A DNA stretch of 64,000 nt from positions 11,289,403 to 11,353,402 of the forward strand of contig CM082587.2 in assembly GCA_040954595.2 (NCBI GenBank). Direction: 5' to 3'. Below the pieces are notes generated by a model. The model was not told the origin of the DNA. It searched no databases and worked only from the letters and a program-made list of their open reading frames with translations. Positions 5,881 to 43,769 of this stretch are shown here, piece by piece. Origin of the DNA: Balanoglossus misakiensis. Taxonomy: Eukaryota; Animalia; Hemichordata. The position numbers were made by a program, and so were the translations under genes. Every line of letters starts with the position of its first letter. The first letter of the stretch is position 1.

Positions 5881-7928
5881 ACCTTGCTAGGGCAGAGAAT
5901 AAGTACCCCTGGACCTTGCTAGGCCAGTGAATAAGTGCCCCTGGACCTTGCTAGGGCAGAGAATTGGTACCCCTGGACCTTGCTAGGGCAGAGAATAAGT
6001 ACCCCTGGACCATGCTAGGGCAGAGAATTGGTACCCCTGGACCTTGCTAGGGCAGAGAATAAGTACCCCTGGACCTTGCTAGGGCAGAGAATAAGTACCC
6101 CTGGACCTTGCTAAGCCAGTGAATAAGTGCCCCTGGACCTTGCTAGGGCAGAGAATTGGTACCCCTGGACCTTGCTAGGCCAGTGAATAAGTACCCCTGG
6201 ACCTTGCTAGGGCAGAGAATAAGAACCCATGGACCATGCTAGGGCAGAGAATAAGTACCCCTGGACCTTGCTAGGCCAGTGAATAAGTGCCCCTGGACCT
6301 TGCTAGGGCAGAGAATTGGTACCCCTGGACCTTGCTAGGGCAGAGAATAAGTACCCCTGGACCTTGCTAGGCCAGTGAATAAGTGCCCCTGGACCTTGCT
6401 AGGGCAGAGAATTGGTACCCCTGGACCTTGCTAGGGCAGAGAATAAGTACCCCTGGACCTTGCTAGGGCAGAGAATAAGAACCCATGGACCATGCTAGGG
6501 CAGAGAATAAGTACCCCTGGACCTTGCTAGGCCAGTGAATAAGTGCCCCTGGACCTTGCTAGGGCAGAGAATTGGTACCCCTGGACCTTGCTAGGCCAGT
6601 GAATAAGTACCCCTGGACCTTGCTAGGGCAGAGAATAAGAACCCATGGACCATGCTAGGGCAGAGAATAAGTACCCCTGGACCTTGCTAGGCCAGTGAAT
6701 AAGTGCCCCTGGACCTTGCTAGGGCAGAGAATTGGTACCCCTGGACCTTGCTAGGGCAGAGAATAAGTACCCCTGGACCTTGCTAGGCCAGTGAATAAGT
6801 GCCCCTGGACCTTGCTAGGGCAGAGAATTGGTACCCCTGGACCTTGCTAGGGCAGAGAATTGGTACCCCTGGACCTTGCTAGGGCAGAAAATTGGTACCC
6901 CTGGACCTTGCTAGGGCAGAGAATAAGTACCCCTGGACCTTGCTAGGCCAGTGAATAAGTGCCCCTGGACCTTGCTAGGGCAGAGAATTGGTACCCCTGG
7001 ACCTTGCTAGGGCAGAGAATAAGTACCCCTGGACCATGCTAGGGCAGAGAATTGGTACCCCTGGACCTTGCTAGGCCAGTGAATAAGTACCCCTGGACCT
7101 TGCTAGGCCAGTGAATAAGTGCCCCTGGACCTTGCTAGGGCAGAGAATTGGTACCCCTGGACCTTGCTAGGGCAGAGAATAAGTACCCCTGGACCTTGCT
7201 AGGGCAGAGAATAAGAACCCATGGACCATGCTAGGGCAGAGAATAAGTACCCCTGGACCTTGCTAGGCCAGTGAATAAGTGCCCCTGGACCTTGCTAGGG
7301 CAGAGAATTGGTACCCCTGGACCTTGCTAGGCCAGTGAATAAGTACCCCTGGACCTTGCTAGGGCAGAGAATAAGAACCCATGGACCATGCTAGGGCAGA
7401 GAATAAGTACCCCTGGACCTTGCTAGGCCAGTGAATAAGTGCCCCTGGACCTTGCTAGGGCAGAGAATTGGTACCCCTGGACCTTGCTAGGGCAGAGAAT
7501 AAGTACCCCTGGACCTTGCTAGGCCAGTGAATAAGTGCCCCTGGACCTTGCTAGGGCAGAGAATTGGTACCCCTGGACCTTGCTAGGGCAGAGAATTGGT
7601 ACCCCTGGACCTTGCTAGGGCAGAAAATTGGTACCCCTGGACCTTGCTAGGGCAGAGAATAAGTACCCCTGGACCTTGCTAGGCCAGTGAATAAGTGCCC
7701 CTGGACCTTGCTAGGGCAGAGAATTGGTACCCCTGGACCTTGCTAGGGCAGAGAATAAGTACCCCTGGACCATGCTAGGGCAGAGAATTGGTACCCCTGG
7801 ACCTTGCTAGGGCAGAGAATAAGTACCCCTGGACCATGCTAGGGCAGAGAATTGGTACCCCTGGACCTTGCTAGGGCAGAGAATAAGTACCCCTGGACCT
7901 TGCTAGGGCAGAGAATAAGTACCCCTGG
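5881..7928. repeat. 32-bp minisatellite, ~64 copies (ACCTTGCTAGGGCAGAGAATAAGTACCCCTGG and variants)
   Basis: Directly visible; recurring variants GCCAGTGAATAAGTGCCC, GAATTGGTACCC, AAGAACCCATGGACCATG. Confidence 0.98.
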
Positions 7929-8779: not shown

Positions 8780-11110
8780 CTAATTAAAATCTTCTTCGCT
8801 TAAATATCCAGCTCCATTCCAGTGGAGTTGTTGCGTTGCTTGCGAATAGACTGCCTCCAACTCACTGCTGTCCGTCTCAACACATATACTTGGTCTTCCA
8901 AGATTCACCGCCGTTGTGAATACAGAGCCTGGAAATAAAAACACACAAGTACTATTTATAGTAAAAATTAAAATACAAACTGGCATCCATTCCTATGTCA
9001 TTGTTTATATAATATACAGCTTGCTTTGATTGGTAATTTGAGAAACCCAGTATATTTGATAAAATTTATCCTGTTTATCCATTGATTGTTGTGGAACCCT
9101 TTAACTACTTGTGGTTTCAAACATATTCAGCAGTAACTATTTTTCCTGGCAGATAATACGACTCATCTTCAATACATCAAAATGAAGCCTGTTTTTTGAA
9201 TGTGCTTAAAAAATTACATATGAAATGAAACAACTTCTCAACTAACCATATTATGACATGAAAAAAATCTCCTAATCATGTTTACTATTAGATAACCTTG
9301 CCCATTCATCAATTAAATCAGTCACTGTAAGTATTGAACCAGAGAACATGATAATGCGAAAATCAAATGTTTGTTGACTCTCCCCATATAATGCATTTTG
9401 TGTAACTATGTGGAAGCATTTACACTGTCAAAAGGAATTTAATAATATTACTTTTGCTTTGACTTTACAATAATTGTCTGTGTCCTGATCACAACTTTTT
9501 TCCCCATTCATTCTACTAATATGACTAGGTATTGTCTTCCATTTTACTATAATACCACTGCTTTAATTTAAAGTGACAGAGGCCAACAACTGGCAAAATT
9601 TTCTTTGGTTTGAATTGGACTGATGGATGATAAAATGTACACGTGAGTGACAGACAATCACAAAAATATCTTTGCCTGAAATGTATTGCATTTTTTTATA
9701 AAAATGGTCAATGATGAAAAGTGTATTCGTTGTGAATCTTACCTATACTTCTTGTAATGTCCAATACCCATCGCTTTTGACTGGAAAACACATTTATGAT
9801 GTGTTTATACATCTGTGTTTTGTCTTTCTTGTCATCTATAATCCACATATTATGGTGTGCTTCCTCCCCAAAATTTACTTGGGTAGCATTCACCTGTCCG
9901 TCTTCAGCCCAGTATCCAACCACTATACCATACACAGATTTCCATAGGGTCTTCTTGGCTGCAGCAATAAAACATAGAAATATTAATATAGATCTCAAAC
10001 CTTTAATTAAATGATTTAATGTGTGAGATTCCCAGTTCAATGAGAAAAATCAGATAAAGAGAAGCCAAGCATAAATCTTAATGTGCGTACAACAGATACA
10101 TACTGAACCTTCCATGTTAAAATGATTAAAATACTCTCAGCAGAAAACAATATCAAGCTCATTTAAGTTATTGAAATAAAAAAATATTAACAATTTTCTA
10201 AGCCTTTTGATCTTCAATGTGTTACGTGTTGATCATTTTACTCTGGTATTCTCTGAATTTGACCCACTAAATGATGGTACGTCATGTCAAAAGATATAAA
10301 ACCCTTAAAATAAACAACAAAGGCTATTTGAGGAAGGTGAATTGACACCTCCAAAATGTGCCATAATTATCCTATCATGGGGCTTAATTTTACTGGTATT
10401 TGAAACTCAACAGCCAAAAACAGATGACATCTAGCTGAAATTATAATACTTACATGATTTGTTATTTTTCACAAAGTAGAATGCCTCCTCTGTTTGAAGA
10501 CAAGTTTGTTTCAGGATGCTCCTGACCCCACGGATTTCATCTGTCTCGCAGAATACCACAACATTGTAGTACGGGACACCACAATCCAGATTTACAGCTT
10601 TTACAGTTGCCATTACTTTTCAAATATTTTCATCACCAACAATCTGTTGAGATATAGAATTTCAATGCAATGTTAAACTTTAATCAGCACCACTGTCATG
10701 TCATGAAAGATAATATAACATTGATACCGTGAGGTATATTGCAGTCTGAACTTGACTTCAGTTCACAACAATAACAATGTCAACTGTACACATGTCATGC
10801 AGATAAACTATATAATGGGTATTTCATTATGCTTCAGGGATTTGACATGGAAACAAATATTACAACAAAAATGATTTAGAATTAAATATAACTTGAAGCA
10901 TGTGTACAAATATCCAAAATTACATAACAAGTGGAGCTCACATGCACTGGTGTACAGTTCAAGCCTTTACATTAAAAAATTCTGTGCATGTAATTTTATA
11001 AAATCAATCTCTCTCTTAATCTTACCTCATCCATATTAATGAGAGTGAGTTCAGCCCCTGTAAAGTCTGGACAACAGGCCTTGATTTCCTTTGCATTTAA
11101 GGAAGTAACA
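8780..11110 (-). CDS. Exons encoding beta-class amino-methyltransferase-like fold (probably catalytically degenerate)
   Basis: Spliced C-terminus MYKHIINVFSSQKRWVLDITRSIG|SVFTTAVNLGRPSICVETD follows the N6_N4_Mtase pattern (L..II..FS..GDxVLDPFxGSGST..AA..LGR..IGxE); upstream CVLNTDV...GAELTLINMDE sits where motif IV (DPPY) is expected but lacks it. Confidence 0.6.
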
Positions 11111-11699
11111 TCAGTGTTTAGTACACAACCTCGGGTACCATCTTGTCCAGTGAAAATGTTTGTGGCATCAGATTCTTGAACACTGTCTTGCGCATCAAGG
11201 ATCCCCCTGATCTTCTTACATTCAGTCACCATTTCTGCTGGTATTCCTCTGCTGAATGACAAGTCCTTGAACCGGCTAAGATACTCTCTGCCGGCATACT
11301 CAGGTAATTTTTCTGAAAATATCTGCCATGGCATCTGAAGTTCTTTCATCATATTCTGTTGTATAACCTTCATCTTTTTTACATCTTTTGCTTCTCTATT
11401 CATCTCCTGCAGGCTCATCTCCCCCTCTCTGACATTTTGGAGAAAATCACTGACTGTATCTTCATTTAGGAGAACAAGGTTGCTAAATAGATATACAGGT
11501 ATATCAGGTTTAGCCATCAAAGTTTTCTTGGTGAATTTTTGTCCTTTTAGAGTCCCCGTCTCATATGCATCAAAGATATCATCAAGCGTGCTGGCAATAT
11601 CCGGACCCAGTCTTGCAAGATTTAGGATTGTTTCAATATCTTTGTCATTCTGTGAAGGAAACAAAAAATTTTCTATTTTCGTTTCTGTTAGTAAATACT

Positions 11700-11843
11700 T
11701 ACCTTTGATCCAACCTATAGCCTAATATATCTCGCCCTCTAACGACCGCTGAGATAAAAAAACTTTCCCCTGATTACGTCATACTCACCGAGTACATATA
11801 CCACCTGTCCAGCCGTGAATATTCAGTATTGCTCAGCACGAGA
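11700..11843. repeat. DIRS 3' inverted terminal repeat
   Basis: Reverse complement of 17149-17296 with few mismatches. Confidence 0.95.
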
Positions 11844-11954
11844 AATAACTGCTCAGGCCGAAACTATGCTGCCCACGCACTGAGGACCCATCCAAAATTT
11901 ATGAATAATGGAAAAACAGTCACAGGTCAAGTGTGGGGAGGCGGGTGGGTACCT

Positions 11955-12053
11955 GGTTGGATCAAAGGTAAGTATTTACTAACAGAAACGAAAATAGAAA
12001 ATTTTTTGTTTCTATGGCATAAATACCATACCTTTGATCCAACCTATAGCCTA
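11955..12053. repeat. DIRS internal complementary region (ICR)
   Basis: First half is the reverse complement of the element end from 11659, second half the reverse complement of the end at 17316, joined through TTT. Confidence 0.95.
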
Positions 12054-12126
12054 CAGAGTCCCAAGGAACAACTGGCGGTGGGACTTGAACCGAAAAAACA
12101 AAATTCCAACAGAAAGAACCAGGCTA

Positions 12127-14331
12127 TTACTTACTGTGAGCTACCCTTTGAGCTACACAGATAGGACCCAAGGAAAATAAGCCATCTGCTTCCGCTGCCA
12201 TATCTCGCAGATAAGCAGAGGAAAAAGTAGTCTGTGATCTCCACTGGACTGCAGACAATAAATCAGCCATGGAAGTCCCTGAAAAAAGTGACCATGAAGC
12301 AGCAAGAGCTCTGACTTCATGAGCTGACACCTTAGCCCAGCTAATTGCTTCTTCTGAAGGGCTAGAATAAGCAAACTTAATAGTCTCGACGATCCATCTG
12401 GAAATAGTCGACTGTGAAATAGACATACTGGGTGTAACCCTAATGGAGATAAACAGTCTTGTCTGCTCTCCCCTCCTGTCTTTTGTTCTCTGCAAATAAT
12501 ACTTCAGTGCTCTGATAGGACAGAGCAACCTATCCTCTGAACGCTGACCGACTAACTTCGTCAGTTTCGGAATAACCAGAGGCGATTGTGGCAGATCCGC
12601 AATCCGATTCTTTGCCAAGAAAGCTGGGTCAGTAAGCAAAGTGACACTGTCTGCTGACCAACGAATATGAGCTGAAGCCATAGACAGGGCATGAAGCTCA
12701 CTACGGCGACCTGCCGTAGCTAATGCCAAAAGAAAAACAGTCTTGTACGTCAAGAACTTCATCTCTGCTGTTTGCAAAGGTTCAAATGGAGCTCCTAATA
12801 AAGCATGTAGAACCAAAGATAAACTCCACTGGGGAACCAGTGACTTTACAACTGGTCGCGCCAAAGAGAAATTACTAATCAAAGCAGAAATAGACCCGTC
12901 CAGGGTAGTAACTTCCTCACCCAACAATCGAAGTGTGTTACCTATAGCTGAACGGTACGCCTTAATAGTGCTCACTGCTGTCTTTTTCTCCCTAAACAAG
13001 TAGAGGAAAAAATCTGCTAGCTGAGGAGGCGTGGGTCTGAGAAAATCAATCGACCTTTTCTCACACCAATGACGAAAGGAACACCACTTTGAATCATATG
13101 CTGCCGTGGTGGATGCTCGTCGGCGTTGTGCGATGCGCGAGGCAGCTTCTGCAGAAAAGCCTCTTGCCTGAAAACTGAGCTTGATAGTCTCCAAGCGTGG
13201 AGGTGAAGGTGTTGTGCTACCGGAGGCAGCCGAACAGTCTCCTCCATGCAATTGTGTGGTAATGTCAGTGGACAGTCCACCAGTAACTGGAGTAGTCTTG
13301 GAAACCAAGGACGTGTTGGCCATAGTGGTGCAACTAGAAGTATTTCGCATTCTTCGTGTGCTACCTTGGAAATTACCCTGGAGATCAACGGTAGTGGGGG
13401 AAATGCATATGCCAACATTCCCTTCCAGCTGATTGACAGAGCGTCGCATGCTAGTGCTTGTGGTTCCGACCTTAGTGACGCGTAAATCGGGAACTTGCGA
13501 TTCTTGGCTGTCGCAAATAGGTCTACGTGGGGCCTGTCCCAAATCAGACAAATCTGCTCTACTAGCGGTTGCCGTAGAGCGCACTCTAGTGGATATAACT
13601 TGTCCCGTGATAGAGCATCTGCCAGAATGTTGCTTGTGCCCTGAACGTGGAGTGCTTTCAGCGTGATGCTGTTCGCCTGGCACCAATTCAGCATGTCCCA
13701 TACCAGATAACACAGGCTGGGTGATCTGGTGCCGCCCTGGTGATTTATAAATGCGACTACTGTGGTGTTGTCTGACCTGATCAGAATCACCTTGCCGCAA
13801 ATGTCTTGGTGAAAGTGGAGAAGTGCATACTGTACTGCCTTCATTTCCAACCAATTTATGTGCCGCACTGACTGGTCGACTGACCATATCCCTGAAATTG
13901 TCCTGTCTCCCAAGTGTGCACCCCACCCTTGGAGTGATGCGTCCACAAACAGTGACACCGTCGCCAACGGGGATACTAGGGGATTTCCCTCGAGAGTATT
14001 CCCCCTGTCTAGCCACCATTGCAGGTGTGAAACTAGAGGTGGCTTTACCTGAATAAGGTCTGTCAACTGACCGGATACCGGCCTCCAATGAGCCAACAGG
14101 AACAGTTGAATTGGCCTCATATGTAGTCTGCCTAAAGGTATTGCCTCGGCTAGAAAGTTCATGCGACCCAGGATGCTGAGCAATGTGCGTGCTTGGACCA
14201 TGGACTCTGAACTGATCCGATGCACTTGTTGTTCTAATTTCAACAGGTTTTCCTCCGTAGGGAAAACTAAACCCTTGGACAGATCCATGACCATGCCAAT
14301 GAACTGGATCCTCTGTGAGGGGATTAGACAA
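12127..14331 (-). CDS. DIRS tyrosine recombinase ORF (5' part overlaps pol)
   Basis: RRASTTAAYDSKW core-binding region; catalytic R (GRRSEL), HEVR, W, Y (AYLRD); LLCPIRAL motif. Confidence 0.95.
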   Translation of the reverse strand: MSNPLTEDPVHWHGHGSVQGFSFPYGGKPVEIRTTSASDQFRVHGPSTHIAQHPGSHELSSRGNTFRQTTYEANSTVPVGSLEAGIRSVDRPYSGKATSSFTPAMVARQGEYSRGKSPSIPVGDGVTVCGRITPRVGCTLGRQDNFRDMVSRPVSAAHKLVGNEGSTVCTSPLSPRHLRQGDSDQVRQHHSSRIYKSPGRHQITQPVLSGMGHAELVPGEQHHAESTPRSGHKQHSGRCSITGQVISTRVRSTATASRADLSDLGQAPRRPICDSQESQVPDLRVTKVGTTSTSMRRSVNQLEGNVGICISPTTVDLQGNFQGSTRRMRNTSSCTTMANTSLVSKTTPVTGGLSTDITTQLHGGDCSAASGSTTPSPPRLETIKLSFQARGFSAEAASRIAQRRRASTTAAYDSKWCSFRHWCEKRSIDFLRPTPPQLADFFLYLFREKKTAVSTIKAYRSAIGNTLRLLGEEVTTLDGSISALISNFSLARPVVKSLVPQWSLSLVLHALLGAPFEPLQTAEMKFLTYKTVFLLALATAGRRSELHALSMASAHIRWSADSVTLLTDPAFLAKNRIADLPQSPLVIPKLTKLVGQRSEDRLLCPIRALKYYLQRTKDRRGEQTRLFISIRVTPSMSISQSTISRWIVETIKFAYSSPSEEAISWAKVSAHEVRALAASWSLFSGTSMADLLSAVQWRSQTTFSSAYLRDMAAEADGLFSLGPICVAQRVAHSK

Positions 14332-15206
14332 GACTTATCTGTGCTCGGAATGAACCCCACACGAACGGTCTCCCGTAGTGTGGTTTGTGTGTCTGCCAGT
14401 GTCAACTGGAAACTGGAATTGTGTAGCAACCAGTCGTCCAGGTATGGATTGGCTTGTACTGCTCGGGAATGAAGAAAAGCCATCAACGCCCCTACTACCC
14501 GTGTAAAAATAGCCGGGGCAGTGGCCAAACCGAACGGAAGAGCCACAAACTGGAACAGTTTGCTCCCTATCGCAAAGCGAAAGTACCTCTGGAAGTGAGC
14601 ATGGATAGGAATGTGGAAATAAGCGTCCTGCAAGTCTATCGTCGTTGCCCAATCTCCCGTGGAGAGAGCCTGACGAATAGTTCGAGTGGTCTCCATACGG
14701 AAAGACTCGATTATAATGTACTGATTGAGCACGCTCAGGTCCAAAATGGGTCTCCATCCCTGTGATTTCCTTTGAATAAGGAAAACACGACTGAAAAACC
14801 CCGTATCCTGAACTGGTAAAGGGACCTTTTGAATGGCCCCTTTTTCCAACAGCCCCTGTATGGCCCTCCACATAGGAGGGGAAGGGTGCGATACCAAATG
14901 ACTTGGAGGATACAACGAAAGGGGTGGAAACGTCCTGAAGAATAGACGAACCCCTTCCGAAACTAAAGAGAGGACTGTTTGGTCGTCTGTAATTTTCTGC
15001 CATTCCTGGGCAAAATGTTTCAGACGACCCCCAACTGCTACCTGTGGCAATGGTGTCTGGGGCATAGTCACAGATTGTGACCCCATTACCCCTTTGTCCT
15101 GACTTGTGTAGTCACTTGTGCTGGCTGCTAGCCCCTTTGGGGGGCTTAGCCTGCTGACGAAAGGGCTGACCCTTCCTTTGCTTGTTAAATGGTCTCTTCC
15201 TAGCAA
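13017..15206 (-). CDS. DIRS pol: reverse transcriptase, RNase H and Dam-like methyltransferase (MT) domain
   Basis: IDLQDAYFHIPI, LPFGLATAP, YLDD; RNase H FVDASLQGWG, HINWLE, SDNTT; MT VDLFAT...YAFPP...VAPLWP. Confidence 0.97.
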   Translation of the reverse strand: MLGRDHLTSKGRVSPFVSRLSPPKGLAASTSDYTSQDKGVMGSQSVTMPQTPLPQVAVGGRLKHFAQEWQKITDDQTVLSLVSEGVRLFFRTFPPLSLYPPSHLVSHPSPPMWRAIQGLLEKGAIQKVPLPVQDTGFFSRVFLIQRKSQGWRPILDLSVLNQYIIIESFRMETTRTIRQALSTGDWATTIDLQDAYFHIPIHAHFQRYFRFAIGSKLFQFVALPFGLATAPAIFTRVVGALMAFLHSRAVQANPYLDDWLLHNSSFQLTLADTQTTLRETVRVGFIPSTDKSCLIPSQRIQFIGMVMDLSKGLVFPTEENLLKLEQQVHRISSESMVQARTLLSILGRMNFLAEAIPLGRLHMRPIQLFLLAHWRPVSGQLTDLIQVKPPLVSHLQWWLDRGNTLEGNPLVSPLATVSLFVDASLQGWGAHLGDRTISGIWSVDQSVRHINWLEMKAVQYALLHFHQDICGKVILIRSDNTTVVAFINHQGGTRSPSLCYLVWDMLNWCQANSITLKALHVQGTSNILADALSRDKLYPLECALRQPLVEQICLIWDRPHVDLFATAKNRKFPIYASLRSEPQALACDALSISWKGMLAYAFPPLPLISRVISKVAHEECEILLVAPLWPTRPWFPRLLQLLVDCPLTLPHNCMEETVRLPPVAQHLHLHAWRLSSSVFRQEAFLQKLPRASHNADEHPPRQHMIQSGVPFVIGVRKGRLIFSDPRLLS

Positions 15207-16863
15207 ACTTCCGTTTGCCGGTGAACTTTGACCCAGAGACAGAAGACTGAGCCTGTGCTACTGCTAACTGTTCTACAGCCAACTTCTGCTTAAGCAACTC
15301 CTCATTTGTTCTAAGAACAGCATCAAATTGCCCATTAAAAACCAATGGACCTGACCATGGGAGAAGACGGGCAGTACGAGCTGCCTCCCTTTCCAAAGGA
15401 AGATGACTGATAAGATGGTCACGCGTCATCAACACTTGAGACGCTGCCATACGAGAATTCAATTCTGCTTGATAAACCACAGCCTTAGCGGCTTCAGTTA
15501 ACAACAGTTTGGCATGCTGCCAATTTTCTGCTATCTGAGGAGTAGATTCACCCTCCTGCATGGGTTTAAGCTCTCTGCTTAAAGCTGAGAGTAACAGAAA
15601 AGTGCAATTAGAGATCCTTGCGGAAAGACGAGTAGTTGCCTCTAAGCGGGCAAAATCCTCAGCCCTAATCACATAATTCCTCAAAACCTCTTTATTTCTT
15701 ACCAACTGCTTTGCGGATTCATCAACCGCTGGTGAAGAGTGGTAGAATGGTCCACGTGTAAGATCAAACACGCGACTACCCTGAGGTCTAGACACCAATG
15801 GGAAAACATGACTTGGCATCCCTTGAGGGTAACAACGAGGTTTCTTGTTAGCAGTGTAACAAAAGTCCCTGGTGCCGTTAATCTCGGCATGTACCGTGTC
15901 TATCAGAGACGACAGACGAGGAATAAAAGGTAGCTTTCGGTGTACCGGATCAGCTGCCTTACCCAACACATGTTCAAAAGAAGCCGTCAGCTGTTCTGCC
16001 GACACTTCAGCAGTGGGTGGGGGACATTCCTCAGGGGGTACAGTATTATACACTAGCATAACCGCGTCAGCCCATTGACTGGCGCGACTAGTTTCCTCTT
16101 GATCGGACAAACTGTCTTCGTCCTCATCCTGCCCCTCTGACTCCGATTGTGAAACATCGAAGGAGGAAATAGGAGGGGCAGGGACAGTGTGACCACTGTG
16201 CACAGGATTTTGGCCCGACACAGAGACCCGATTAGCTTGAGCAGGCATACCCCAGCTTGTGGACTGAAGTGGTGCCGCCAAATTAGAGGGAGGACAAGTC
16301 CATGGGAAACCCCACGACTGTTGGAAGCCCGGAGGGGGAAAATTCCCACCAGCCTAAGCGACTCCCGAAGCTAATTGGTCTGGTACACACATAGGGGGTG
16401 GGCCGTGAAGCCCTCCCCACACACTACCGGCACTACCTATGGACGTCGAAGGCACTGGATTAGCCAAGACGGAGGTAGGAACCGTATGAAAATACCTAGA
16501 AGACATACCTGCATAATTCGGCCAAACACCTGACTGAACAGTTTGCGCCGATGAAACACCTCCCAAATGAGACGGACCCGGAACTGCTGCATCCAAAAAG
16601 GAAGAAACCGGCAAAACAGGAGTTTCTGCAACCGTCCTAGCAGCTGATGAATCCAACTTGGATCGCTTCGAAGCGAGCGAAGCCCTAGCAGAAGCATGGC
16701 CGCCATCTTGGGATGACCCCCTAGCTAACTCAGAAAAAACATCAGGCTCTTCAGAGTGCGCTGAATGGAAAGCTTGACCCGGAATAGGCAGTTGAGAGTC
16801 TTCTATTTCCGAAGGAGTACGAGAAGACGACCGCGACGCGGTGTCAGAAACTCTCTCCGTCAT
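15112..16863 (-). CDS. DIRS gag-like ORF1 with a single in-frame TAG
   Basis: ORFs 16354-16863 and 15112-16281 are in one frame: ...DQLASGVA*AGGNFPPPGFQQSWGFPWTCPPSNLAAPLQ...; position upstream of pol. Confidence 0.85.
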
Positions 16864-17148
16864 GGTTCCAGTGAAAACACGAAAAAATGCACGGGCAAAA
16901 ATGGCTTCTGAAGGCTATATGAAAAGACAATACCGCAGAAGCCCTACACACTGACCCGTACACGTGCGGGAAAAATCCGAAAAACAAACTTTGCAAGTGC
17001 CAAAATAACACTAGCAAGCAGTTTAGAAAATAAGTCGTTACTTATCTACTTCCCCAATCGAAAAACCTCAGGCGAAAAGCAGCAATGGTCGAAGGGCTGA
17101 GCACTTCTTGACAAAAATCCAACACCTCAAGAGAGAAGATGTCCGCTG

Positions 17149-17296
17149 TCTCGTGCTGAGATAATAATACTGAATATTCACGGCTGGACAGGTGTTATGT
17201 GTACTCGGTGAGTATGACGTAATCAGGGGAAAGTTTTTTTATCTCAGCGGTCGTTAGAGGGCGAGATATATTAGGCTATAGGTTGGATCAAAGGTA
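17149..17296. repeat. DIRS 5' inverted terminal repeat
   Basis: Reverse complement of 11700-11843. Confidence 0.95.
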
Positions 17297-18109
17297 TGGT
17301 ATTTATGCCATAGAAATGAACACAACATATTTACAACTGTACAATCAAACATAACAGCTTTGAGACAAGCTACTTGAACAGAGAGTAGTTAAGCAAGGTT
17401 AAAAATGCCCCAAACTACAAACATGCAATCTTAACCATAATTTACAATACATTTTACCCAATTTAACTGACTTAGATTGTTGCAATTGTCAAGGCAATAA
17501 GAACTCAAAAAGGAACAAAAACCTCCCTAAAATATAGATATCCATAAGGGTGCATCTTTGTTGCTACATTACCAACTTGAGTAATAAATCTGATTATAAT
17601 GTACTTGAATTATAAGTCAGTCAGACCAATAATAATCATAAAATAATAATGCAAATTATATCATTACCTGTTGTAAGATATTCTTACAGGACTTCTTCCA
17701 CTCTTCTGAAGCTGTATTTGCAGATAGTAACCTGTCACGGCACAACTGGACCTAATGAAAGTAATGAAACACAAAGTGTAATGGCATACTTCTTTTTGCA
17801 TAACTATATGATATTTGATAATGCAGTGATAAGATCAAGTCACCCCCTGAAATGTCATCCCCTGAAATGTTACTACCAAAATTAAATTTGGATCCTTGTA
17901 TATAAAAAAAAACAGCGTGTTCGTGCCTGTTAGAAGAAAAAATACATGTAGCCTGTAGTAAAAGTCATCCTATTACACCATTGCCATCACCAGTCAATAA
18001 TGGGGCATGAGAACTTCATGAAAAAAGTGAAGAAATTACTCCATGACAGTAAAAACTGTTGTAATCAAAGCTTCAACGACCAAGTTACATATACTTTGCA
18101 ATTTCTCAC

Positions 18110-18719
18110 CTTCTCTCTTGTGCTGATCCGGTGTACCAGGTGCTGAATATCATTGTGTCTGTTGGATACCCACATCGCTGCCTCTTCTGGCAGATTACAA
18201 TAAATTTTGCAATTTCTTGCTTTAAAAAGGGGTCGATCTTTGTATTTGTCACTCATTTGCTTCGTGGCTGTAAAGTTATACTGGCCTCCGAGAATACTAT
18301 ATTTATATCCATTCACCTGGAAAATATACAATAAATTATTATGACTTATATTATGAACATTACATCTGCTGTAAGATTATATTCAACATCTCTGAATAAT
18401 TTTTGTGTTACATGAATAGATGGACCTAAACAATTAGCTTTTATAATAGTAGAAAAACCTTTGATGTAGCAGATTATTGAAACTTGTCAATGCTGCATTT
18501 AATGAAAAGTACTGTTTTTTTCGCATTCGCAGCAGTTGCTCATACTTACATTATTCTTATTAAATTTGTTCTTCTCAACATCCACCATGACTATATATGG
18601 AATGTAGGAGTCGTCGGTGAACTTTTCCATACTGTCAACAAGTTGTTTCACGAAATAGTTGTCGACGTCCCGTACTTGTTTGCCCAGGTGCAAATTGCAT
18701 ATGTGAATGCTTGAAATAC
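18110..18719 (-). CDS. Two exons encoding ParB/Sulfiredoxin-like domain
   Basis: IHICNLHLGKQVRDVDNYFVKQLVDSME...PYIVMVD...YSILGGQYNFTATKQM...CKIYCNLPEEAAMWVSNRHN matches the ParB-N layout (I.I..L, R......L..S, P.IV, Y.I.xG.H...A, ..EEA.....EN). Confidence 0.62.
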
Positions 18720-21193
18720 CTTCAGATGAAACAGAAAAAAAAAGATGAACAATGACACTCACTATGATTGTGGAAATACCCTGGCAGATCTCACAAGAGA
18801 TCCCCAGCCATTTTAGCAGAAATGTTAGCAATAGTCTTATTTTGGAGCCCCTCAAGTCTTGCCAAATCCAAATCTTAAAATAATGTAATGGACATGAAAC
18901 AAAATTTAAAAACACATGTATGTATTGTTCTTTGGCAATCATTAATAAGTGTGACTGGATTGTATCATAAAATAAAATAAATCGATGTGCTTATGCAGAA
19001 ATCATATTGAAACCGACATACCGCAACAAAAATTGACATGCATTATAAGTATGATGCAAGTTTATGTCCTTGTATTAATTTCGACAAATATATTATGAAT
19101 CACTGACAACCAGACAGTCTATGTGACACCCAAGCTTTAAAAACATCCTCACCAGGAATCGCATGGCTTTCAACAAGCTGCTGCATAGAAATGTCTGCTT
19201 CAACTTCACAAGCAGGTGATCCCTTTCTCCTCTTCTTTGTCAAATCTGGTATACTGTCGCCACTTTTTGGTCGTTTCTTCTTGTTTTGTTTCTTGCCGGT
19301 ACCTACACGTATACTAAGGAGATAAGACATAATAAAAAATGCATATAAGTAAACAGTACAAGCACCTGTGCTTCTATTCAGCTTATAAAGTTCAATACAA
19401 TTGGCAGAATGTTCTAACAGGAGAAGGCAGAGGGTAACGGGATAGTAAAAGCTCCAAGCATATTCCTGACGAGTCAGTTCATCCTCAATTTCCGTGAAGC
19501 TAAATTATTCACTCCCCACCCCTCTGAATCACTGTCCTAAGCCTACTTCAGTGTAAGTATTTTTTTGCTTATATTTTGTAGTTTCCTTTCCTATTACAGG
19601 ATATTGTATGATTCTGGGTTGGATCATCCAGAAACTGACATAGAGGATTTGTTAAATTTCATTATTGTAAAAACATTCAATTACCAAGGACAAAGTTATA
19701 CCCATGAACTTGCCAAGTCTTTCTAATTTCACAGCTCTATATAAAAATTGTCATTGACATGAAGCTTGTCATCAAAACACAATTCCCTTCTGTTGGTGCC
19801 ATTCAAAATTAAACCCCTGTACCCAAATAATTGACAAGTACGATTTCAGCTTCACACACGCCTGGTTATACAAACGACTTACATAGGAAGTACTGATTTT
19901 CCTCATAACTTACCAAATGTTGTTAGAACTGTTGATAGGATCAGGAGACACAGATCTACTTCCAGTGGGACTGCCTGTGTTGATAGGATCAGGAGACACA
20001 GATCTACTTCCAGTGGGACTGCCTGATGTGCTACTGGTAGGGCTACTTTGACTGCTTGATGTCCTGCGAGGTGGAGACTCACTGTCAGATACTGATGAAA
20101 CTGTTTCCATAGTAACATCCGCTTGCTCAATTGGTGTCAGCTCTTCTGGATGCTCACTGGCACTGCTCACTAGTTCCCTGTATTTTGTTACAAAGTCAGC
20201 TGCAACTGTTATGTCTCGAAAGTTGCGACAGAAGTCATTTCGATGCCACTCAAATTCTTGACGATAGAAAGTATGGCGCTGAGTCTCAAAATGTATCTGA
20301 AGAGAAAACAAACAACTGCGTCAATGCAATGACAAAACAACCCTGAAAATCAATACTTATGAATCATATGTCTAACTATTTACTAACAAGTATCACTATC
20401 ACACAGTGGAGTTGAAGATTAGCCATATCAAATCTACTGGTACAACCCTTCCTACCAAACACATTTCTGGAGACAAACGTATGAGCCCCCCCCCCCTCCA
20501 CACACACACACACACACATACATATGTACAAACTCATACTTCCATGAATACGAGAGTAACTGGAACAACAAGACTAACCTTGATGCCAACTTGTCCAAGG
20601 CTGTTTCTGTTTTTGACGTCCATTTCCAACTTCACAACAGCAGAAGTTGGTTCTTTTGCGTCTTGCCCACGACCACCTTTCGTCAGCCGGTGTCCAACCT
20701 TGCCATTTGCACCACTCTTTTTTGGGTCCGTGACATGCACGAAAACTTCGTTCTCTTTCTCACCTTCCACAAACCACCAATGCCTTTTCACGGTCATCTC
20801 AGTTGCCAAGTCTTCTTCGCTGTACCGCAGAATGGGTATACTGATTGTAGCCATCTCACCACACTGTTTATATGCAGTTGCTCATGCCCAGGGTAGTCGA
20901 AAACGGAGGGTAATTTGCATGGCATTTCCTGTCAGTATTTAACACTTCATTGTAGAGTGATCTGGAGGGTCAGGTGTGTATTAGGGAGTGATTAGGAACT
21001 TCCTGTCGCAACGGCCGATGAACGACGCTCAACGGCCACCTGTCTGGCCCTGCGAACAATAGTACGTCGTACACATCTTTGCTTCTTCGCACCGCGCACG
21101 ATTTCCAGAGATTTTTTATCTTGATTTATCTTGATTGCCATGATTTAAATCATGGCCAGTCAGGGAAGGAAGCCTTTTGGCTTATATAATCCC

Positions 21194-24048
21194 TCATTGT
21201 CCTTTGTAGCTGTCAAGTCTTATTTTGAAGTCCAGAACAGTTTTAGCATCAACAATATGTGTAGGTAGTTTGTTCCATTCAGCTATAATCCGTTGGGTGA
21301 AGAAGAATTTCCTGCAGTCCAGGCGAAAGCATGATTTTGCTAATTTAAGTGAGTGCCCCCTTGTCCTGTGATGTTGACTGAATGTGAACAGTACGTCTGG
21401 GGAAACTCTATCTATTCCTCTCACAATCCTGAATACTTGTATCAAGTCCCCTCTTGTTCTTCTTTCTTCTAAAGTTGTCAGTTTAAGTTCTTTTAACCTG
21501 GATTCATAACTGAGATGGCTAAGCTCTGGTATCAGTTTTGTTGCTCTTCGTTGTACTTTTTCGACTAATTCAACATCCTTAGTATAGTGTGGGTTCCAGT
21601 ATTGTACAGCATATTCAATGTGGGGTCTAACCAGTGACTTGTATAGTTGCATAATATTGAACTTTGTCTTGTACTTTATATTCCTTTTAATAACTCCAAG
21701 GGCTCTATTTGCTTTCTTTACTGCTTCAGCACAGTGTCGACTTGTCTTCATGGAATTATGAATAAGCACCCCCAGATCCTTTTCCTCTTCAACTGGAGTG
21801 AGTGCTTTATTATTCATGGTGTAGTTAAATGATGGATTTGTTGATCCCACATGCATTACCTTACATTTGTCAACATTAAATGACATCTGCCATTCCTCCG
21901 ACCAAGCTTCAAGGTTGTCAAGATCTTTCTGGAATTTCTCCTTGTCCTCCTGATTCCTAACAATTCTGCCAAGTTTAGTGTCATCAGCAAACTTAAGGAT
22001 CACTGACTTTACAGCATCGTCAATGTCATTAATATAAATCAGGAATAAGATGGGACCGAGCACGGACCCCTGTGGGACACCACTTGTAACTGTAGACCAC
22101 ATAGATGCTGAACCATTTAATACTGTTCGCTGTGCTCTTCCATCTAACCAATTCTGTATCCATGACTTAATTTTACCGACGATGCCATGAGCTTCTAGTT
22201 TAGCCACCAACCTGGTGTGTGGGACCTTGTCAAAAGCTTTACTGAAATCCAGGTAGGCTATGTCGACTGGCTTTCCCTCATCCACAGATTTAGTAACATA
22301 TTCGAAGAACACCAGTAGATTTGTCACACAAGATAACCCTTTCCTGAAACCATGCTGACTATCCTTTATCAGTTTGTTTGTCTCCAAGTGGTCCACAATG
22401 GCATTCCTAATTAGTGTCTCAAATAGCTTACACAGGATTGAGGTTAGACTTACAGGTCTGTAGTTTCCAGTTTTGCACTTGGGCCCTTTTTTGTATATTG
22501 GTGTGACGTTGGCTTTCTTCCATACTTCTGGAACTGTTCCTTGTTGTAGTGTTGCATTGAAAATGACTGTGATTGGCCAAGCTAGCTCTTCTGCCAGTTC
22601 TCTCAGTACCTTTGGATGAATATTATCTGGCCCTGGCGTTTTAATGGGATTTAACTTTCTCAGTAGCTTGAGTACATCTTCTTGTGTTACTATGATATCT
22701 GATAGAAATTTGTCAGTGTCACTAATTATCTGTTCAGGTTGTGGAATATTGCTTAGATCCTCCCTTGTGAACACAGATGCAAAGAAGTTATTTAGTAACT
22801 CAGCCATAGCCTTATCTGTAACTACTGTTTCACCGGAATCATCCTTCAGTGGTCCAACTGTGTCCCTAGTTTTCTGTTTCTTCCTTATGTAGGCATAGTA
22901 GCTTTTTGGATCCTTCTTAATATTCTTACAAAGTTCCTTTTCAAAGAGTCGTTTTGCTGTACGGATTTCTTGACACGTTTCTCTCTGTGCATGCTTGTAA
23001 CTAACAAAGTCACTATAGTCTTTTGATTGTGTATATCTTTTCCAAGCATTATATTTCTTCCTAATTTTCTTTAGTACCTTCTTGTTAATCCACAATGGTT
23101 GATTTCTTTTCTTCTTATACTGCTGGGGTGTAAATTTAGTCACAGTTTCATTGATAACATTTATCAGTTTATCCCAGCATTGCTCTACGTTGATTTCCCT
23201 GAAAGTTTCTTCCCAATTTATGTGCTTTAAATGTTCCTTCATTCCTTTGTAGTCTGCCCTATTATAATTTAGCGTGTGACTCGCTTTAACTTTAATAGGT
23301 ATGTTTACAGTTGTGTTCCAAACAAGAGTTAAGTGGTCACTGTTCCCAAGATGTTCCCTGACTTCAACATCATCTATCATCTGTGGCTCTGTAGTAAACA
23401 CTAAGTCAAGAATAGACTTCCCCTTGTAGGCAATAGTACATGTTGTGTGTAAAAACAATCTTGTACAGCATCCAGAAACTCCTGGCTATCTTTAGTTCCT
23501 GCAGATTGCCTCTGCCAGTCTATGGACGGATAATTAAAATCACCCATACACAGAACACGCTGTGTACTTGCAGCATTTAATAGTCTCACGAGTTCAGCGT
23601 TGTTACTGCTATCAGAGTTCGGGCTACGATAACATACTCCAACAAGTAAGCTATCTCCATCACCACACATTATCTCGCCCCATATACTTTCTTGGAAGCC
23701 AAAATTGGACAAATCGTCTCTTGGTAAGACAGTGTACTTGTTCTTTATATACAAAATTACTCCCCCTCCCCGTCTATTTGTTCTGTCTTTCCTCAACATA
23801 TTATAACCTTGGAGAGTTAGCTCAGCATCAGAATAACTTTCATTTGCCCAGGACTCAGTTACTGCAATTATATCTGGATTTATTTCTGCAGCCATAGATT
23901 CCAAGTCTTCCAGTTTGTTGATCAAACTTCTTGCATTGGTGCATATACAAAGTAAATTATTTACAGTTTCACATCTTCTGTCTTGACTCTGATTTGATGA
24001 ATAAATACTATTTACACTATTTACACTATCCGAGCAGCTTTGGCTCAT
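21194..24048 (-). pseudogene. LINE ORF2: AP endonuclease + reverse transcriptase, one frameshift near 23420
   Basis: TNARSL, VTESW, GGGV, YRSP, MGDFN, SDH (APE); NYRPVSLTS, LDFSKAFDKV, GVPQGSVLGP, FADD (RT); CR1-type C-terminus TRGHSLKL. Confidence 0.95.
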
Positions 24049-24932
24049 ATTGTCTGTTCGTTTTTTGGTGTGCCAGCATTAGTAATGTCTTGCTGACCTT
24101 TTACTATTGTTCCTTTATGTATTCGTAAGTCCTTTTCACCTCTGTCTCTTCTAGATTTTAATTCATTTCTAAGTTTTCTGTCTTCTTCTCTCTGTTCGTA
24201 GGTAAGATCTGGTGATATGTATACATTCTTGTACATTTCTTCTGTTGACTTGGCTAAATGTTTAGCTTTCTGTAGAACCTGGCGTTTTGTTTTTGTGTCC
24301 TTCAACTTGACTCTTAGCAACCTGGGCCTTTTATCTTCAGATCTTTTGCTTGTAGACAGCCTTTCAACTTCAACAATATTTTCATCTGAGAGACCAAGTT
24401 CAGACATCAGACCGGACACTTGCCTAACATCATCACCCCTTACCAGACTTGCCATGCTGTCATCGGGTTCCGGCATATTTCTTACAATGACGTTTAGCTT
24501 CCGCTTTTCGACCTCAATAGCGTTGTTTACTATCTGTTGCACTTGAGCTTTATCGCAGCTTTTCTCCTTCTGACCTATAAATTCTTCTTTCAACTCTTCC
24601 TCTAATGTGTCTTGACGTAGTTGAAGATTGTTCATGACATTAAATAAGCGAACAGCACCATTATTGCAGGCTTTGCAAAACCAATGAATTGTCATATTTG
24701 TATCGTTTGAGACAAGAACCGTGTACAACTCCTTTGATACTCCTTCACATGCTATATGGAACCAGTTCATACATACTTCACACTGCAGAGCTTCGTCATT
24801 GTCTTTCACCTCCTTTCGACAAGTACCACAAGTATAAGTTTCTTTGTTTGCCTTTGACTTCGTCGACGTCGATGTACTGTTCTTCCTCGCCGCATTCCTC
24901 GTGACCGCGACCGTCACCATCTTGGAAGTCAT
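24045..24932 (-). CDS. LINE ORF1 with PHD finger, coiled coil and RRM-like region
   Basis: CGTC...LQCEVCMNWFHIACEGV...WFCKAC; KRKLNVIVRNMPE, RPRLLRV, VYISPDLT motifs; stop overlaps ORF2 ATG (ATGA). Confidence 0.92.
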   Translation of the reverse strand: MTSKMVTVAVTRNAARKNSTSTSTKSKANKETYTCGTCRKEVKDNDEALQCEVCMNWFHIACEGVSKELYTVLVSNDTNMTIHWFCKACNNGAVRLFNVMNNLQLRQDTLEEELKEEFIGQKEKSCDKAQVQQIVNNAIEVEKRKLNVIVRNMPEPDDSMASLVRGDDVRQVSGLMSELGLSDENIVEVERLSTSKRSEDKRPRLLRVKLKDTKTKRQVLQKAKHLAKSTEEMYKNVYISPDLTYEQREEDRKLRNELKSRRDRGEKDLRIHKGTIVKGQQDITNAGTPKNEQTI

Positions 24933-25812
24933 TGCGCAATGGCCAACAACGTTCACACTTCAAACGGCCAATTTTCTTCACTGTTACTGCCCATATAAAT
25001 GATTTGAGTCAACAACTGTGGTCAGTAGCAACTCATGAGTGATACTAGACCTAGTATCACTACAAAAACACAGTCAACCGGGAAAATTTTCTTCTCCTAT
25101 CGGCTGCGACTTGACAGAAATTCCCTGCGCAGAAGCGCCCTCAAACTTGATCAACTATAAAGTCGTGATGAGTTGTACACATTATCGGTAAACAACAGAA
25201 ATAAGTTATCAAATAAACGGGTGACATTTTGTCTGAAAAATATGCAGTTAGTTACAACTTACATCCATACCACGCGTCACACAAATAGTCAAGTCTGATT
25301 GTGATTGTAATGGCGTTCGGTCGATATCAATATATCGTGGGTGTGACAGGGTTAGATTACAACCGATCATTTCGACGGGTTTTATTACACAGACGCATTG
25401 CTTTTAAACAATTATGCTCTTTCTAAATTAATACCTTTATTGAAATTGCCCAGCATATATAGCTTGATTAAAGTTTGTTTTACAAAGTGTGAAATGCGAC
25501 TGTTTTATTTGAGGCCTAACCACCCTCCACGTATTTACGTGTTCGATTACGGATGTGACGTAAGAGGGCAACCGGAACAAAACGTGCGACGGTCCCTGTT
25601 TACACACAGTGCAAGTTCGACTATTGGCCTGAAGATTTATCTCAAGAGAAACTCTGGGTCTAACGCAATTTTTGCAGCGCGAAGTCTCATTACTCCTGCT
25701 ACGACTGAGTGGCCGTGCTCTGATCGACGTCGGCGAACACGCTAGATAAAGGTAGGTACCGGTAAATTACGCCTGTGAAGCTAGTGGTAGTGAACGTTTA
25801 GCTGGCCGTTCA

Positions 25813-43676: not shown

Positions 43677-43715
43677 ATAGTGAAATATAGTCACTTTGGA
43701 ACAGTATTTTTGAAA

Positions 43716-43762: not shown

Positions 43763-43769
43763 GTGTTAA

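Follow-up and report, generated by a model that had tools for sequence, protein, structure and literature searches.

A gene of ten exons and nine introns occupies the minus strand from 20854 to 8780 of the 64-kb stretch of Balanoglossus misakiensis DNA analysed here (hereafter the window), and a DIRS-like retrotransposon lies in its sixth intron (Table 1).

Gene structure and the element in intron 6

The first-pass annotation had described a gene of ten exons with GT-AG sites and consistent phases, and this was borne out: all nine donors are GT, all nine acceptors are AG and the phases agree, while two of its landmarks, 18719 and 18110, coincide exactly with exon ends. The joined exons comprise 2460 nt, or 819 codons. 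Because annotated P. flava, Saccoglossus and Holothuria proteins align with the conceptual translation, and because tblastn matches of the paralogues stop at the exon borders of the window gene, the exon structure is far beyond chance, and the proposal of an intron-containing animal gene holds.

The 5' end of the gene is uncertain, the start ATG of paralogue P0002 being equivalent to position 20925, which is in another frame in the window copy. In our alignment the N-terminal domain of exon 1 is conserved with P0122 and P0023. A perfect in-frame tandem duplication of 48 nt is found in exon 2 (19930-20025). The NLS-like basic tracts reported earlier are present in exon 3 (KKKR at residue 231 and KKRR at residue 246), and P0023 and the homologues from Saccoglossus and Holothuria have similar tracts. 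No part of the family is more widely conserved than the helical middle domain in exon 7 (116 proteins at E <= 1e-3).

Table 1. Exons of the window gene and the retrotransposon in intron 6 (window positions)
Feature	Position	Strand	Description
Exon 1	20579..20854	(-)	ATG at 20854, phase 0 end; opens conserved N-terminal beta-rich domain (MTVKRHWWF...)
Exon 2	19914..20296	(-)	End of N-terminal domain and Ser/Pro-rich linker
Exon 3	19153..19313	(-)	Basic tracts KKKRPK ... KKRRK, bipartite-NLS-like
Exon 4	18550..18719	(-)	ParB_N/Srx-like domain, first half; fold via homologue P0122 residues 195-345
Exon 5	18110..18316	(-)	ParB_N-like domain, second half; box 'ILGGQYNF'
Exon 6	17668..17751	(-)	28 codons; helical middle domain begins
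DIRS-like tyrosine-recombinase retrotransposon	11658..17316	(-)	Inside intron 6; RT/RNase H and Tyr-recombinase ORFs; looks intact
Exon 7	11026..11649	(-)	208 codons; helical middle domain and first MTase-fold strands; ends in motif-IV strand '...AELTLINMDE'
Exon 8	10454..10643	(-)	Helix and strand of MTase fold after motif IV; holds in-frame stop
Exon 9	9743..9958	(-)	MTase-fold central strands, short target-recognition region, degenerate 'QKP' helix start (KD for QK)
Exon 10	8780..8928	(-)	Motif I region 'WVLDITRSIGSVFTTAVNLGR', split with exon 9; TAG stop 8782-8780

The intron 6 element has the features of DIRS-like retrotransposons: inverted terminal repeats (131 nt, 98% identical), an internal region (11955-12053) complementary both to the element's last 58 nt and to its first 45 nt, a reverse transcriptase/RNase H, and a tyrosine recombinase that takes the place of an integrase. 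Pfam matched RVT_1 with E 3.2e-17; the RT_RNaseH and Phage_integrase/SAM-like matches were weak and below the Pfam cut-offs. The 3' end of the element is located 8 nt upstream of the exon-7 acceptor AG, within the polypyrimidine tract. Since the acceptor has kept a pyrimidine-rich tract after the insertion and the element contributes a TACTAAC-like branch site, splicing of exon 7 need not be lost.

An ambulacrarian family of ParB-methyltransferase genes

The window gene and its relatives form a family of ParB-methyltransferase genes of ambulacrarians (acorn worms and sea cucumbers) that is undescribed before. The conceptual protein is 77% identical to P. flava P0118 over 661 residues and matches Saccoglossus kowalevskii P0122 (E 7e-81) and Holothuria P0123 (E 2e-71). 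The expectation that automated annotation would miss such a gene was wrong for the family: at least 10 P. flava and four Saccoglossus paralogues are annotated at NCBI, all as 'uncharacterized protein', and two Holothuria members bear the name 'DNA methylase N-4/N-6 domain-containing protein' in UniProt. The distribution is patchy, with one match in Priapulus. Language-model look-alikes of the ParB-like part were seen in Cnidaria, Mollusca and Porifera; these are a lead only.

In structural models of homologues, the C-terminal domain adopts a permuted Rossmann methyltransferase fold with the motif IV half N-terminal to the motif I half, the order that had been read from the sequence. Five homologues, including Saccoglossus, Holothuria and Logan-contig members, score above the 26.7-bit gathering threshold of PF01555 (N6_N4_Mtase): P0122 (52.8 bits), P0010/P0124 (36.2), P0080 (33.5), P0123 (30.0) and P0009 (29.8). 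No PF01555 match was found in any window exon, nor in P0002, P0003, P0118 or P0120. A family profile compared with PDB sequences retrieved CcrM (E 1.8e-7) and M1.HpyAVI (E 1.3e-6), and there were matches to phage DNA-methyltransferase PHROGs and to PADLOC type II methyltransferases. Residues 531-762 of the P0122 AlphaFold model (pLDDT 84) superimpose on CcrM with Z 22.9 and rmsd 3.5 over 218 aligned residues, a match also given by Foldseek, and the same model fits M1.HpyAVI with Z 21.1. For the P0120 model (pLDDT 87.9), residues 222-429 match CcrM with Z 19.5 and rmsd 2.8 over 195 aligned residues in a Foldseek-independent search and also in Foldseek, the first unrelated chain appearing at Z 6.5. 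Across the bacterial beta-class enzymes CcrM (6PBD), M1.HpyAVI (5HFJ), M.MboIIA (1G60), M.RsrI (1EG2) and M.PvuII (1BOO), which share the permuted Rossmann fold and the motif order IV...I with the animal family, Z to the homologue models is 17-23. Pfam, PDB-sequence and NCBIfam searches gave no methyltransferase or ParB link for the window's own exons or closest paralogues. The putative methyltransferase and ParB assignment of the window copy rests on its homology to relatives and on models of homologues, including P. flava P0120, to which it is 55% identical over 438 residues.

The N-terminal half of the Saccoglossus P0122 model matches ParB_N, and we assign to it a ParB_N/sulfiredoxin fold on the strength of this model. 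Foldseek aligned it with Myxococcus ParB (7bnk; E 4.8e-6, prob 1.00), and residues 195-345, to which window exons 4-5 align, matched PF02195 clusters among the Atlas structure rows (TM 0.64-0.68 by query, 121-132 residues aligned). The PF02195 profile matched none of P0122, P0123, P0118 and the window exons at E <= 1, and the family profile found no ParB or Srx chain among PDB sequences at E <= 1. The ParB box of the family reads GG(Q/C)H with N, C or T as the next residue, and is GGQYN in the window copy, with His replaced by Tyr. The alignment contains no box II arginine in either the family or the window copy; this is the box II/P-motif arginine of GxxR in ParB and GCHR in sulfiredoxin (see also passages of PMC12704722). 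The fusion of a ParB/Srx domain to a beta-class amino-methyltransferase proposed in the first-pass annotation holds for the family because of the Pfam N6_N4_Mtase matches, the CcrM-like models, the ParB_N match and the phage alignments described below. Foldseek recovered both folds in the AlphaFold model of P0122; the window exons and the closest paralogues had no Pfam match to ParB or to a methyltransferase.

State of the window copy

The first-pass annotation had envisaged an intact protein of about 832 aa. The joined frame has 819 codons and a sole internal stop, an in-frame TGA in exon 8 (10622-10620, minus strand; codon 643), and it combines degenerate motifs IV and I with a DIRS element beside an acceptor. 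Glu is found at the TGA position in P0118 and Thr in P0120. Checking the acceptors by hand, we found no alternative in the sequence that both skips the TGA and keeps the fold.

The catalytic motif IV of beta-class methyltransferases is (D/N/S)-P-P-(Y/F/W) and follows strand 4. This canonical form is absent from the window copy, and DPPY is absent from every family member seen. Homologue alignment and models set the true motif-IV position at the exon 7/8 junction, where the family consensus is D-x-P-x-(D/E/N)-W (DTPQNW, DMPQDW, DKPKDW, DVPNDW); the window copy has N-M-D-E-I-V and P0118 has D-M-D-E-I-V. The DPPY-like string 'GVPYY' in exon 8 was rejected as motif IV: it sits in a stretch that is not conserved in the alignment and, by our interpretation of the strands listed for the model, would belong to the strand after the motif-IV strand. 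Neither an intact SAM-binding motif I loop (D-P-F-x-G-S-G-T type) nor a Q-K-P helix was found in the window copy. Its glycine loop is D-I-T-R-S-I-G-S, that is, SIGS versus GTG(S/T) in intact homologues, and Q-K is replaced by K-D. The Saccoglossus (DACCGTGS, QKN) and Holothuria (DACSGTGS, QKP) members align residue by residue to the D-x-x-x-G-x-G-(S/T) SAM loop and Q-K-P helix of CcrM, features that P0120 has lost as well.

The window copy keeps 66 of the 82 family-conserved columns, and among the 16 changes are D565N, P567D and W570V in motif IV, Q694K, K695D and, in the ParB box, H274Y. Its sister paralogues carry damage at other sites: in P0002 the frame shifts at the end of exon 7, and P0118 reads exon 1 in another frame and ends inside exon 9. 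Given the in-frame stop and the lost conserved motif residues, the window copy is predicted to be a catalytically dead enzyme and is probably a pseudogene, a degenerate and likely non-functional paralogue. Counting against the pseudogene reading, the frame is otherwise open and all 18 splice sites are canonical, with about four fifths of the conserved positions kept. With a single codon breaking the frame, the inactivation would have to be of very recent date, or else the TGA may reflect a polymorphism or a fault in the assembly. The window locus is a poor representative of an interesting family.

Alternative readings and possible phage origin

With fair confidence, we read the window locus as a ten-exon paralogue of an ambulacrarian family with the phage-type layout of ParB_N followed by a beta-class methyltransferase, predicted dead and likely a recently inactivated pseudogene. 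Alternatively, it may encode an intact, spliced, nuclear ParB/Srx and methyltransferase-like protein with some 820-830 residues, the TGA then reflecting an error in sequencing or assembly, a polymorphism or recoding; the product would be a non-catalytic DNA-binding protein or reader, or would partner an active paralogue as METTL14 does METTL3. The otherwise open frame, canonical splice sites and retained conserved columns favour this, as do the family-wide conservation of the NLS-like tracts and the prediction that the degenerate P. flava P0120 still folds as a whole methyltransferase domain. We nevertheless consider it unlikely: the TGA is present in the sequence as given, no protein from the window locus occurs in the protein collections searched, the window copy has replacements at all three motif-IV positions that the other family members conserve, and the two closest paralogues are truncated or frameshifted at other places. 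The last two observations make relaxed constraint likelier than a maintained pseudo-enzyme.

More doubtful still is that the gene was carried by a large mobile or virus-derived element that spread the family through marine invertebrates, the window copy being a decayed insertion. The many P. flava copies are dispersed over at least 10 different contigs and several are fragmentary, the surroundings are rich in repeats (satellites, a LINE and two other retroelements), and the spread is patchy (the Priapulus match and, as a lead only, the cnidarian, mollusc and sponge look-alikes). Moreover, ParB-methyltransferase fusions are typical of phages and prophages according to passages of PMC12704722. 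However, inverted or direct repeats flanking the gene were not found anywhere in the 64-kb window, and apart from unrelated retroelements there are no adjoining transposase, integrase, capsid or polymerase genes. The nine spliceosomal introns, with borders that coincide with the ends of paralogue tblastn matches, and the family's occurrence in both hemichordates and holothurians also speak against it.

Under the preferred reading of a decayed paralogue, the domain layout shared with phage fusion proteins suggests, without proving, that the family descends from a phage ParB-methyltransferase fusion. The top matches to the P0122 model in the viral library BFVD are phage proteins of 397-518 aa aligned over 598-691 columns, the only named one being 'ParB/Sulfiredoxin'; alignments of about 600-690 columns are consistent with coverage of both domains. 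Matches by tblastn cover only about 90 C-terminal residues at 35-42% identity, the level at which the C-terminal SAM-binding region resembles phage DNA methylases, and neither prokaryotes nor phages yielded a close sequence relative. The ancestral protein would enter the nucleus via its basic bipartite tract, hold DNA via the ParB_N and helical modules, and use SAM via an intact D-x-C-x-G-T-G-S loop and a D-x-P-x-x-W variant of motif IV. In the Ptychodera subfamily, including the window copy, selection on the methyltransferase module may have been relaxed. The product of the window copy, if made, would be a 642-residue protein ending just past the motif-IV strand; it would retain the N-terminal domain, the ParB-like domain and the helical domain but no complete methyltransferase fold. 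Host domestication and a nuclear location of the protein are inferences.

Phage and prophage fusions of ParB_N to an N6_N4 methyltransferase (PF02195 and PF01555; Caudovirales) have the same order of ParB_N fold, helical region and beta-class amino-methyltransferase. In contrast to them, the animal genes contain nine introns and encode an additional beta-rich domain at the N-terminus, a Ser-rich linker that carries basic NLS-like tracts, and a helical middle domain of much greater size; the animal proteins lack the ParB box-II arginine and have D-x-P-x-x-W in place of (D/N/S)PP(Y/F), and the window copy is degraded further. Among eukaryotes, the haptophyte 'clade 6' N6A-methyltransferases are described as lineage-specifically expanded and derived from the phage ParB-terminase locus, but they are algal and fused to an FHA fold, not to ParB; section 8 and the ParB passages of the review that describes them (Iyer, Zhang and Aravind, PMC4738411) place no such clade in animals. 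N4CMT of bdelloid rotifers (PF01555; PDB 8S9M-O) is likewise an intron-containing animal gene for a permuted bacterial-type amino-methyltransferase, and its structure matches P0122 with Z 19.3 and P0120 with Z 16.7. N4CMT, an enzyme of bacterial origin, retains a canonical catalytic motif. It is fused to a chromodomain, without ParB, and is shown to write 4mC, whereas the present family is multi-copy and found in other phyla. In the passages of PMC8885841 that describe it, N4CMT is a documented metazoan precedent for recruiting such an enzyme.

Gene structure and the in-frame stop

Joining the exons by script from their coordinates gave GT donors at 9 of 9 and AG acceptors at 9 of 9 junctions, with consistent phases. 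The ten-exon structure proposed in the first-pass annotation is therefore correct, its landmarks at 18719 and 18110 are exact exon ends, and the basic NLS-like tracts that it reported are present in exon 3 as KKKR (residue 231) and KKRR (residue 246). However, the open frame of ~832 aa that it described was not recovered. The joined exons comprise 2460 nt, or 819 codons and a terminal TAG, and contain a sole internal stop, a TGA at codon 643 (window 10622-10620), eight codons into exon 8. Hence, no full-length product is possible from the sequence as given. Other acceptors were inspected by hand, and the single one that keeps the frame, after a GAG codon, was rejected, as using it would remove 33 codons of the fold. 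Recoding of the TGA as selenocysteine is considered unlikely. When the exons were run by tblastn against the 64-kb window, no second copy of the gene appeared. Exon 2 holds a perfect 48-nt in-frame tandem duplication (19930-20025), which repeats 16 residues, 'GSPTGSRSVSPDPIN(T/S)', in a Ser/Pro-rich linker; this low-complexity region has therefore changed very recently.

Features of the window; exons were defined from the window sequence and tblastn of two annotated relatives
Feature	Coordinates	Strand	Remarks
Exon 1	20854-20579	minus	
Exon 2	20296-19914	minus	
Exon 3	19313-19153	minus	
Exon 4	18719-18550	minus	
Exon 5	18316-18110	minus	
Exon 6	17751-17668	minus	
Exon 7	11649-11026	minus	
Exon 8	10643-10454	minus	
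Exon 9	9958-9743	minus	
Exon 10	8928-8780	minus	
DIRS-like retrotransposon	11658-17316	minus	5659 bp; in intron 6; ITRs, internal complementary region, ORFs
Non-LTR retrotransposon	21194-24959	minus	directly upstream of the gene; RT (RVT_1, E 8.5e-38), EEP endonuclease
Retroelement	42440-47109	plus	zf-CCHC gag-like ORF and RT ORF
Satellite arrays	467-5542, 35163-36116, 48532-63939		81/162-nt unit, blocks ~2.05 kb apart
Separate array	5881-7928		32-nt-based unit

Domain layout, fold and distribution of the family

From the N-terminus, family members have a beta-rich domain (window exons 1-2), a linker that is rich in Ser and holds the basic tracts (exons 2-3), a domain resembling ParB_N (exons 4-5) and a sizeable helical domain (exons 6-7); the beta-class amino-MTase domain comes last and is encoded by the end of exon 7 through exon 10. 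Pfam searches with single window exons and the closest paralogues returned sub-threshold noise only, and phmmer of the Ptychodera flava protein P0002 and the close paralogue P0003 against PDB sequences gave nothing relevant. The cut-off of PF01555 (N6_N4_Mtase, 26.7 bits) was passed by P0122 of Saccoglossus kowalevskii (52.8 bits, E 6.6e-14), by P0080 and P0123 of Holothuria (33.5 and 30.0 bits) and by the Logan-contig homologues P0010 and P0009 (36.2 and 29.8 bits). For intact members PHROGs, NCBIfam and PADLOC also return MTase; the helical middle domain and its ~200-aa relatives have no match in PHROGs. A profile of 11 family members matched CcrM among PDB sequences (E 1.8e-7), along with M1.HpyAVI, M.RsrI, M.BceJIV and M.MboIIA, and the Q-K-P helix and the D-x-x-x-G-x-G loop align in these matches.

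Predicted structures agree with this assignment. In the AlphaFold2 model of P0122 (114-row alignment, mean pLDDT 84), residues 531-762 superimpose on CcrM with Z 22.9 (rmsd 3.5, 218 aligned), on M1.HpyAVI with Z 21.1, and on M.MboIIA, M.RsrI, rotifer N4CMT and M.PvuII with Z 19-20; Foldseek gave E 4.9e-10 for the MTase part. In a search independent of Foldseek, the model of P. flava P0120 (pLDDT 87.9) matched CcrM with Z 19.5 (rmsd 2.8, 195 aligned), the first unrelated fold appearing at Z 6.5 only. A language-model search gave N6_N4_Mtase clusters as well (0.91), which we take as a lead only. The N-terminal half of P0122 matched Myxococcus ParB 7bnk (Foldseek, E 4.8e-6), and its residues 195-345 matched PF02195 ParB_N clusters in an Atlas structure search (TM 0.64-0.68 by query). 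No sequence-profile match to ParB or sulfiredoxin was found with Pfam on members and exons or with the family profile against PDB sequences. The five best matches in a viral structure library are phage proteins of 397-518 residues, the single named one being 'ParB/Sulfiredoxin'; they are aligned over 598-691 columns, which is consistent with alignments spanning both domains, the output giving no aligned ranges. By sequence, phage methylases matched only the last ~90 residues (35-42% identity). The ParB plus MTase reading of the first-pass annotation thus stands for the family, on PF01555 and fold matches, and extends to the window copy by descent only.

The exon 7 translation (208 aa) matches two P. 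flava proteins with E 2.6e-88 and 3.9e-71, and an exhaustive search with it returned 116 proteins at E<=1e-3. P. flava has at least ten members annotated as 'uncharacterized proteins', including P0118 (731 aa), P0002 (623 aa), P0120 (445 aa) and P0023 (722 aa). There are four loci in S. kowalevskii, including P0122 (768 aa) and P0125, and further members in Holothuria leucospilota (P0123, 667 aa; P0080; P0006) and Apostichopus japonicus (P0063); numerous other exon 7 matches are ORFs of ~200 aa on unnamed contigs. The conceptual window protein is 77% identical to P0118 over 661 residues and 55% identical to P0120 over 438 residues, and matches P0122 and P0123 with E 7e-81 and 2e-71. A protein of exactly this locus is absent from the protein collections searched, and a word-based query with the last 214 residues of P0003 retrieved no protein but P0003 itself.

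Three full-length homologues of 661-690 aa (P0009, P0010, P0124) are uninterrupted on Logan contigs of 2263-2955 nt; P0009 shares >90% identity with P0123 of Holothuria. Should introns be present in the holothurian genes, these contigs would be transcripts and hence evidence of expression. Clusters of short hypothetical proteins from Cnidaria, Mollusca and Porifera are close language-model look-alikes of P0122 residues 195-345 (0.95-0.96), and Priapulus caudatus has one protein (P0011) whose match is confined to the helical domain. In view of these clusters and the Priapulus homologue, the distribution of the family, or of its modules, may extend beyond Ambulacraria to further marine invertebrates.

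State of the window copy and interpretation

We compared the window protein with nine relatives, among which 82 columns are >=85% conserved. The window keeps 66 of these, and the 16 substitutions fall non-randomly. Where the family carries D-x-P-x-(D/E/N)-W at motif IV (DTPQNW, DMPQDW, DKPKDW, DVPNDW), the window reads N-M-D-E-I-V, with 3 of 3 conserved residues replaced. K-D replaces the Q-K ahead of the SAM-binding half, D-I-T-R-S-I-G-S stands in for the glycine loop D-A-C-x-G-T-G-S, and the ParB-box histidine of GG(Q/C)H is tyrosine. The in-frame TGA and the DIRS-like insertion in intron 6 come on top of these substitutions as lesions of the copy. The canonical (D/N/S)PP(Y/F) occurs in no family member seen. 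A 'GVPYY' in exon 8 was considered as a DPPY-type motif IV and rejected: the residues it aligns to are not conserved and, on our reading of the strand list of the P0122 model, belong to the strand that follows motif IV.

The two closest paralogues, both of P. flava, look damaged at other places. P0002 loses the frame near the end of exon 7, and its annotated model ends in a frameshifted reading of that exon. P0118 reads exon 1 in another frame, its start matching the alternative-frame window ORF 20574-20759, and ends within exon 9. With the window copy, this makes three members of the subfamily in which the MTase domain has been disrupted, each in its own way, and we infer that selection on the module is probably relaxed in Ptychodera. 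These copies illustrate the decay of such a module into pseudo-enzymes and pseudogenes.

To our knowledge, recruitment of bacterial-type amino-methyltransferases into animal genomes is very rare, and it is still debated if animals deposit 6mA or 4mC at all. We read the family described here as another animal recruitment of an amino-MTase of bacterial or phage type, one in which the fusion to ParB_N persists. Among the article texts searched, we found no prior description of an intron-bearing ParB_N plus beta-class MTase family with NLS-like tracts in hemichordates and holothurians. The documented recruited case is rotifer N4CMT (PMC8885841); Saccoglossus, hemichordate, echinoderm and ParB do not occur in that paper. 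Section 8 of Iyer et al. (PMC4738411) lists six group-1 eukaryotic MTase clades, one derived from a phage ParB-terminase locus but haptophyte and FHA-fused; in that section and the ParB passages no clade is assigned to animals with ParB. According to PMC12704722, proteins that join a ParB-CTPase fold to an N6_N4 MTase are over-represented in phages and prophages. The accessible portion of a preprint on DAM domains of DIRS and LTR elements (10.64898/2026.05.21.726589) mentions neither ParB nor hemichordates, and 'methyltransferase' has 0 occurrences in that of the hemichordate genome paper (PMC4729200).

Family proteins would enter the nucleus via a bipartite basic tract and engage DNA through the ParB_N-plus-helical module. 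In members keeping the SAM loop (Saccoglossus and Holothuria), the C-terminal domain would methylate bases in a SAM-dependent manner, with D-x-P-x-x-W as the putative catalytic motif. This makes the intact proteins of Saccoglossus (XP_002733611.1) and of sea cucumbers (Holothuria KAJ8049666.1) specific candidates for a DNA-methylating activity in deuterostomes. A fuller reading, which we regard as rather improbable in its entirety, is that acorn worms and sea cucumbers carry, by vertical inheritance, a descendant of a phage ParB-MTase that has introns and is targeted to the nucleus, that its intact forms (LOC100377770 of Saccoglossus, HOLleu_02510 of Holothuria) methylate DNA at adenine N6 or cytosine N4 with an unusual D-x-P-x-x-W catalytic loop, and that the Ptychodera expansion represents dead-enzyme ParB-like DNA clamps, the window locus being a decaying one. 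If true, deuterostome animals would possess a second, bacterial-type writer of DNA methylation. Multiple copies, a patchy distribution and repeat-rich surroundings would also fit a gene carried as cargo by a mobile or viral element, but the gene has nine introns and is surrounded in the 64 kb by no flanking repeats or element genes, and we consider such an origin very unlikely. A TIR-bounded element around the gene was likewise rejected, as no flanking inverted repeats lie within the window.

For the window locus itself, the degenerate motifs and the in-frame stop are evidence against an active methyltransferase. It is less probable, but possible, that the locus encodes an intact, non-catalytic nuclear protein and that the TGA is an error or a polymorphism, since the remaining frame and all splice sites are clean. 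Overall, we suggest that this is a degenerate, likely dead paralogue. It would yield at most a 642-residue protein with an incomplete MTase fold, and the transcript would probably be subject to nonsense-mediated decay. The main value of this copy is as a pointer to the family.

Retroelements and satellites around the gene

The DIRS element in intron 6 has ITRs of 131 nt (98%) and long RT/RNase H and tyrosine-recombinase ORFs; Pfam DAM/MethyltransfD12 has no match in it. Its internal complementary region (11955-12053) consists of exact reverse complements of the first 45 and last 58 nt of the element, the two parts overlapping by 4 nt (TTTC/GAAA). The element looks young. It ends 8 nt upstream of the exon 7 acceptor, within the old pyrimidine tract, and brings its own pyrimidine run and TACTAAC near this acceptor, so that exon 7 may still be spliced. 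The window copy also offers a clear-cut case of a young DIRS element inserted into the pyrimidine tract of a splice acceptor.

The window is animal DNA, AT-rich and rich in satellites and retroelements, and the surroundings of the gene are heterochromatin-like. In the non-LTR retrotransposon, a PHD finger (E 1.9e-7) is encoded by the upstream ORF. The plus-strand retroelement is followed by short tandem repeats and several inverted-repeat pairs, for example 45350-45472 and 46987-47109. The 81/162-nt satellite is a higher-order repeat and fills the last 16 kb of the window.
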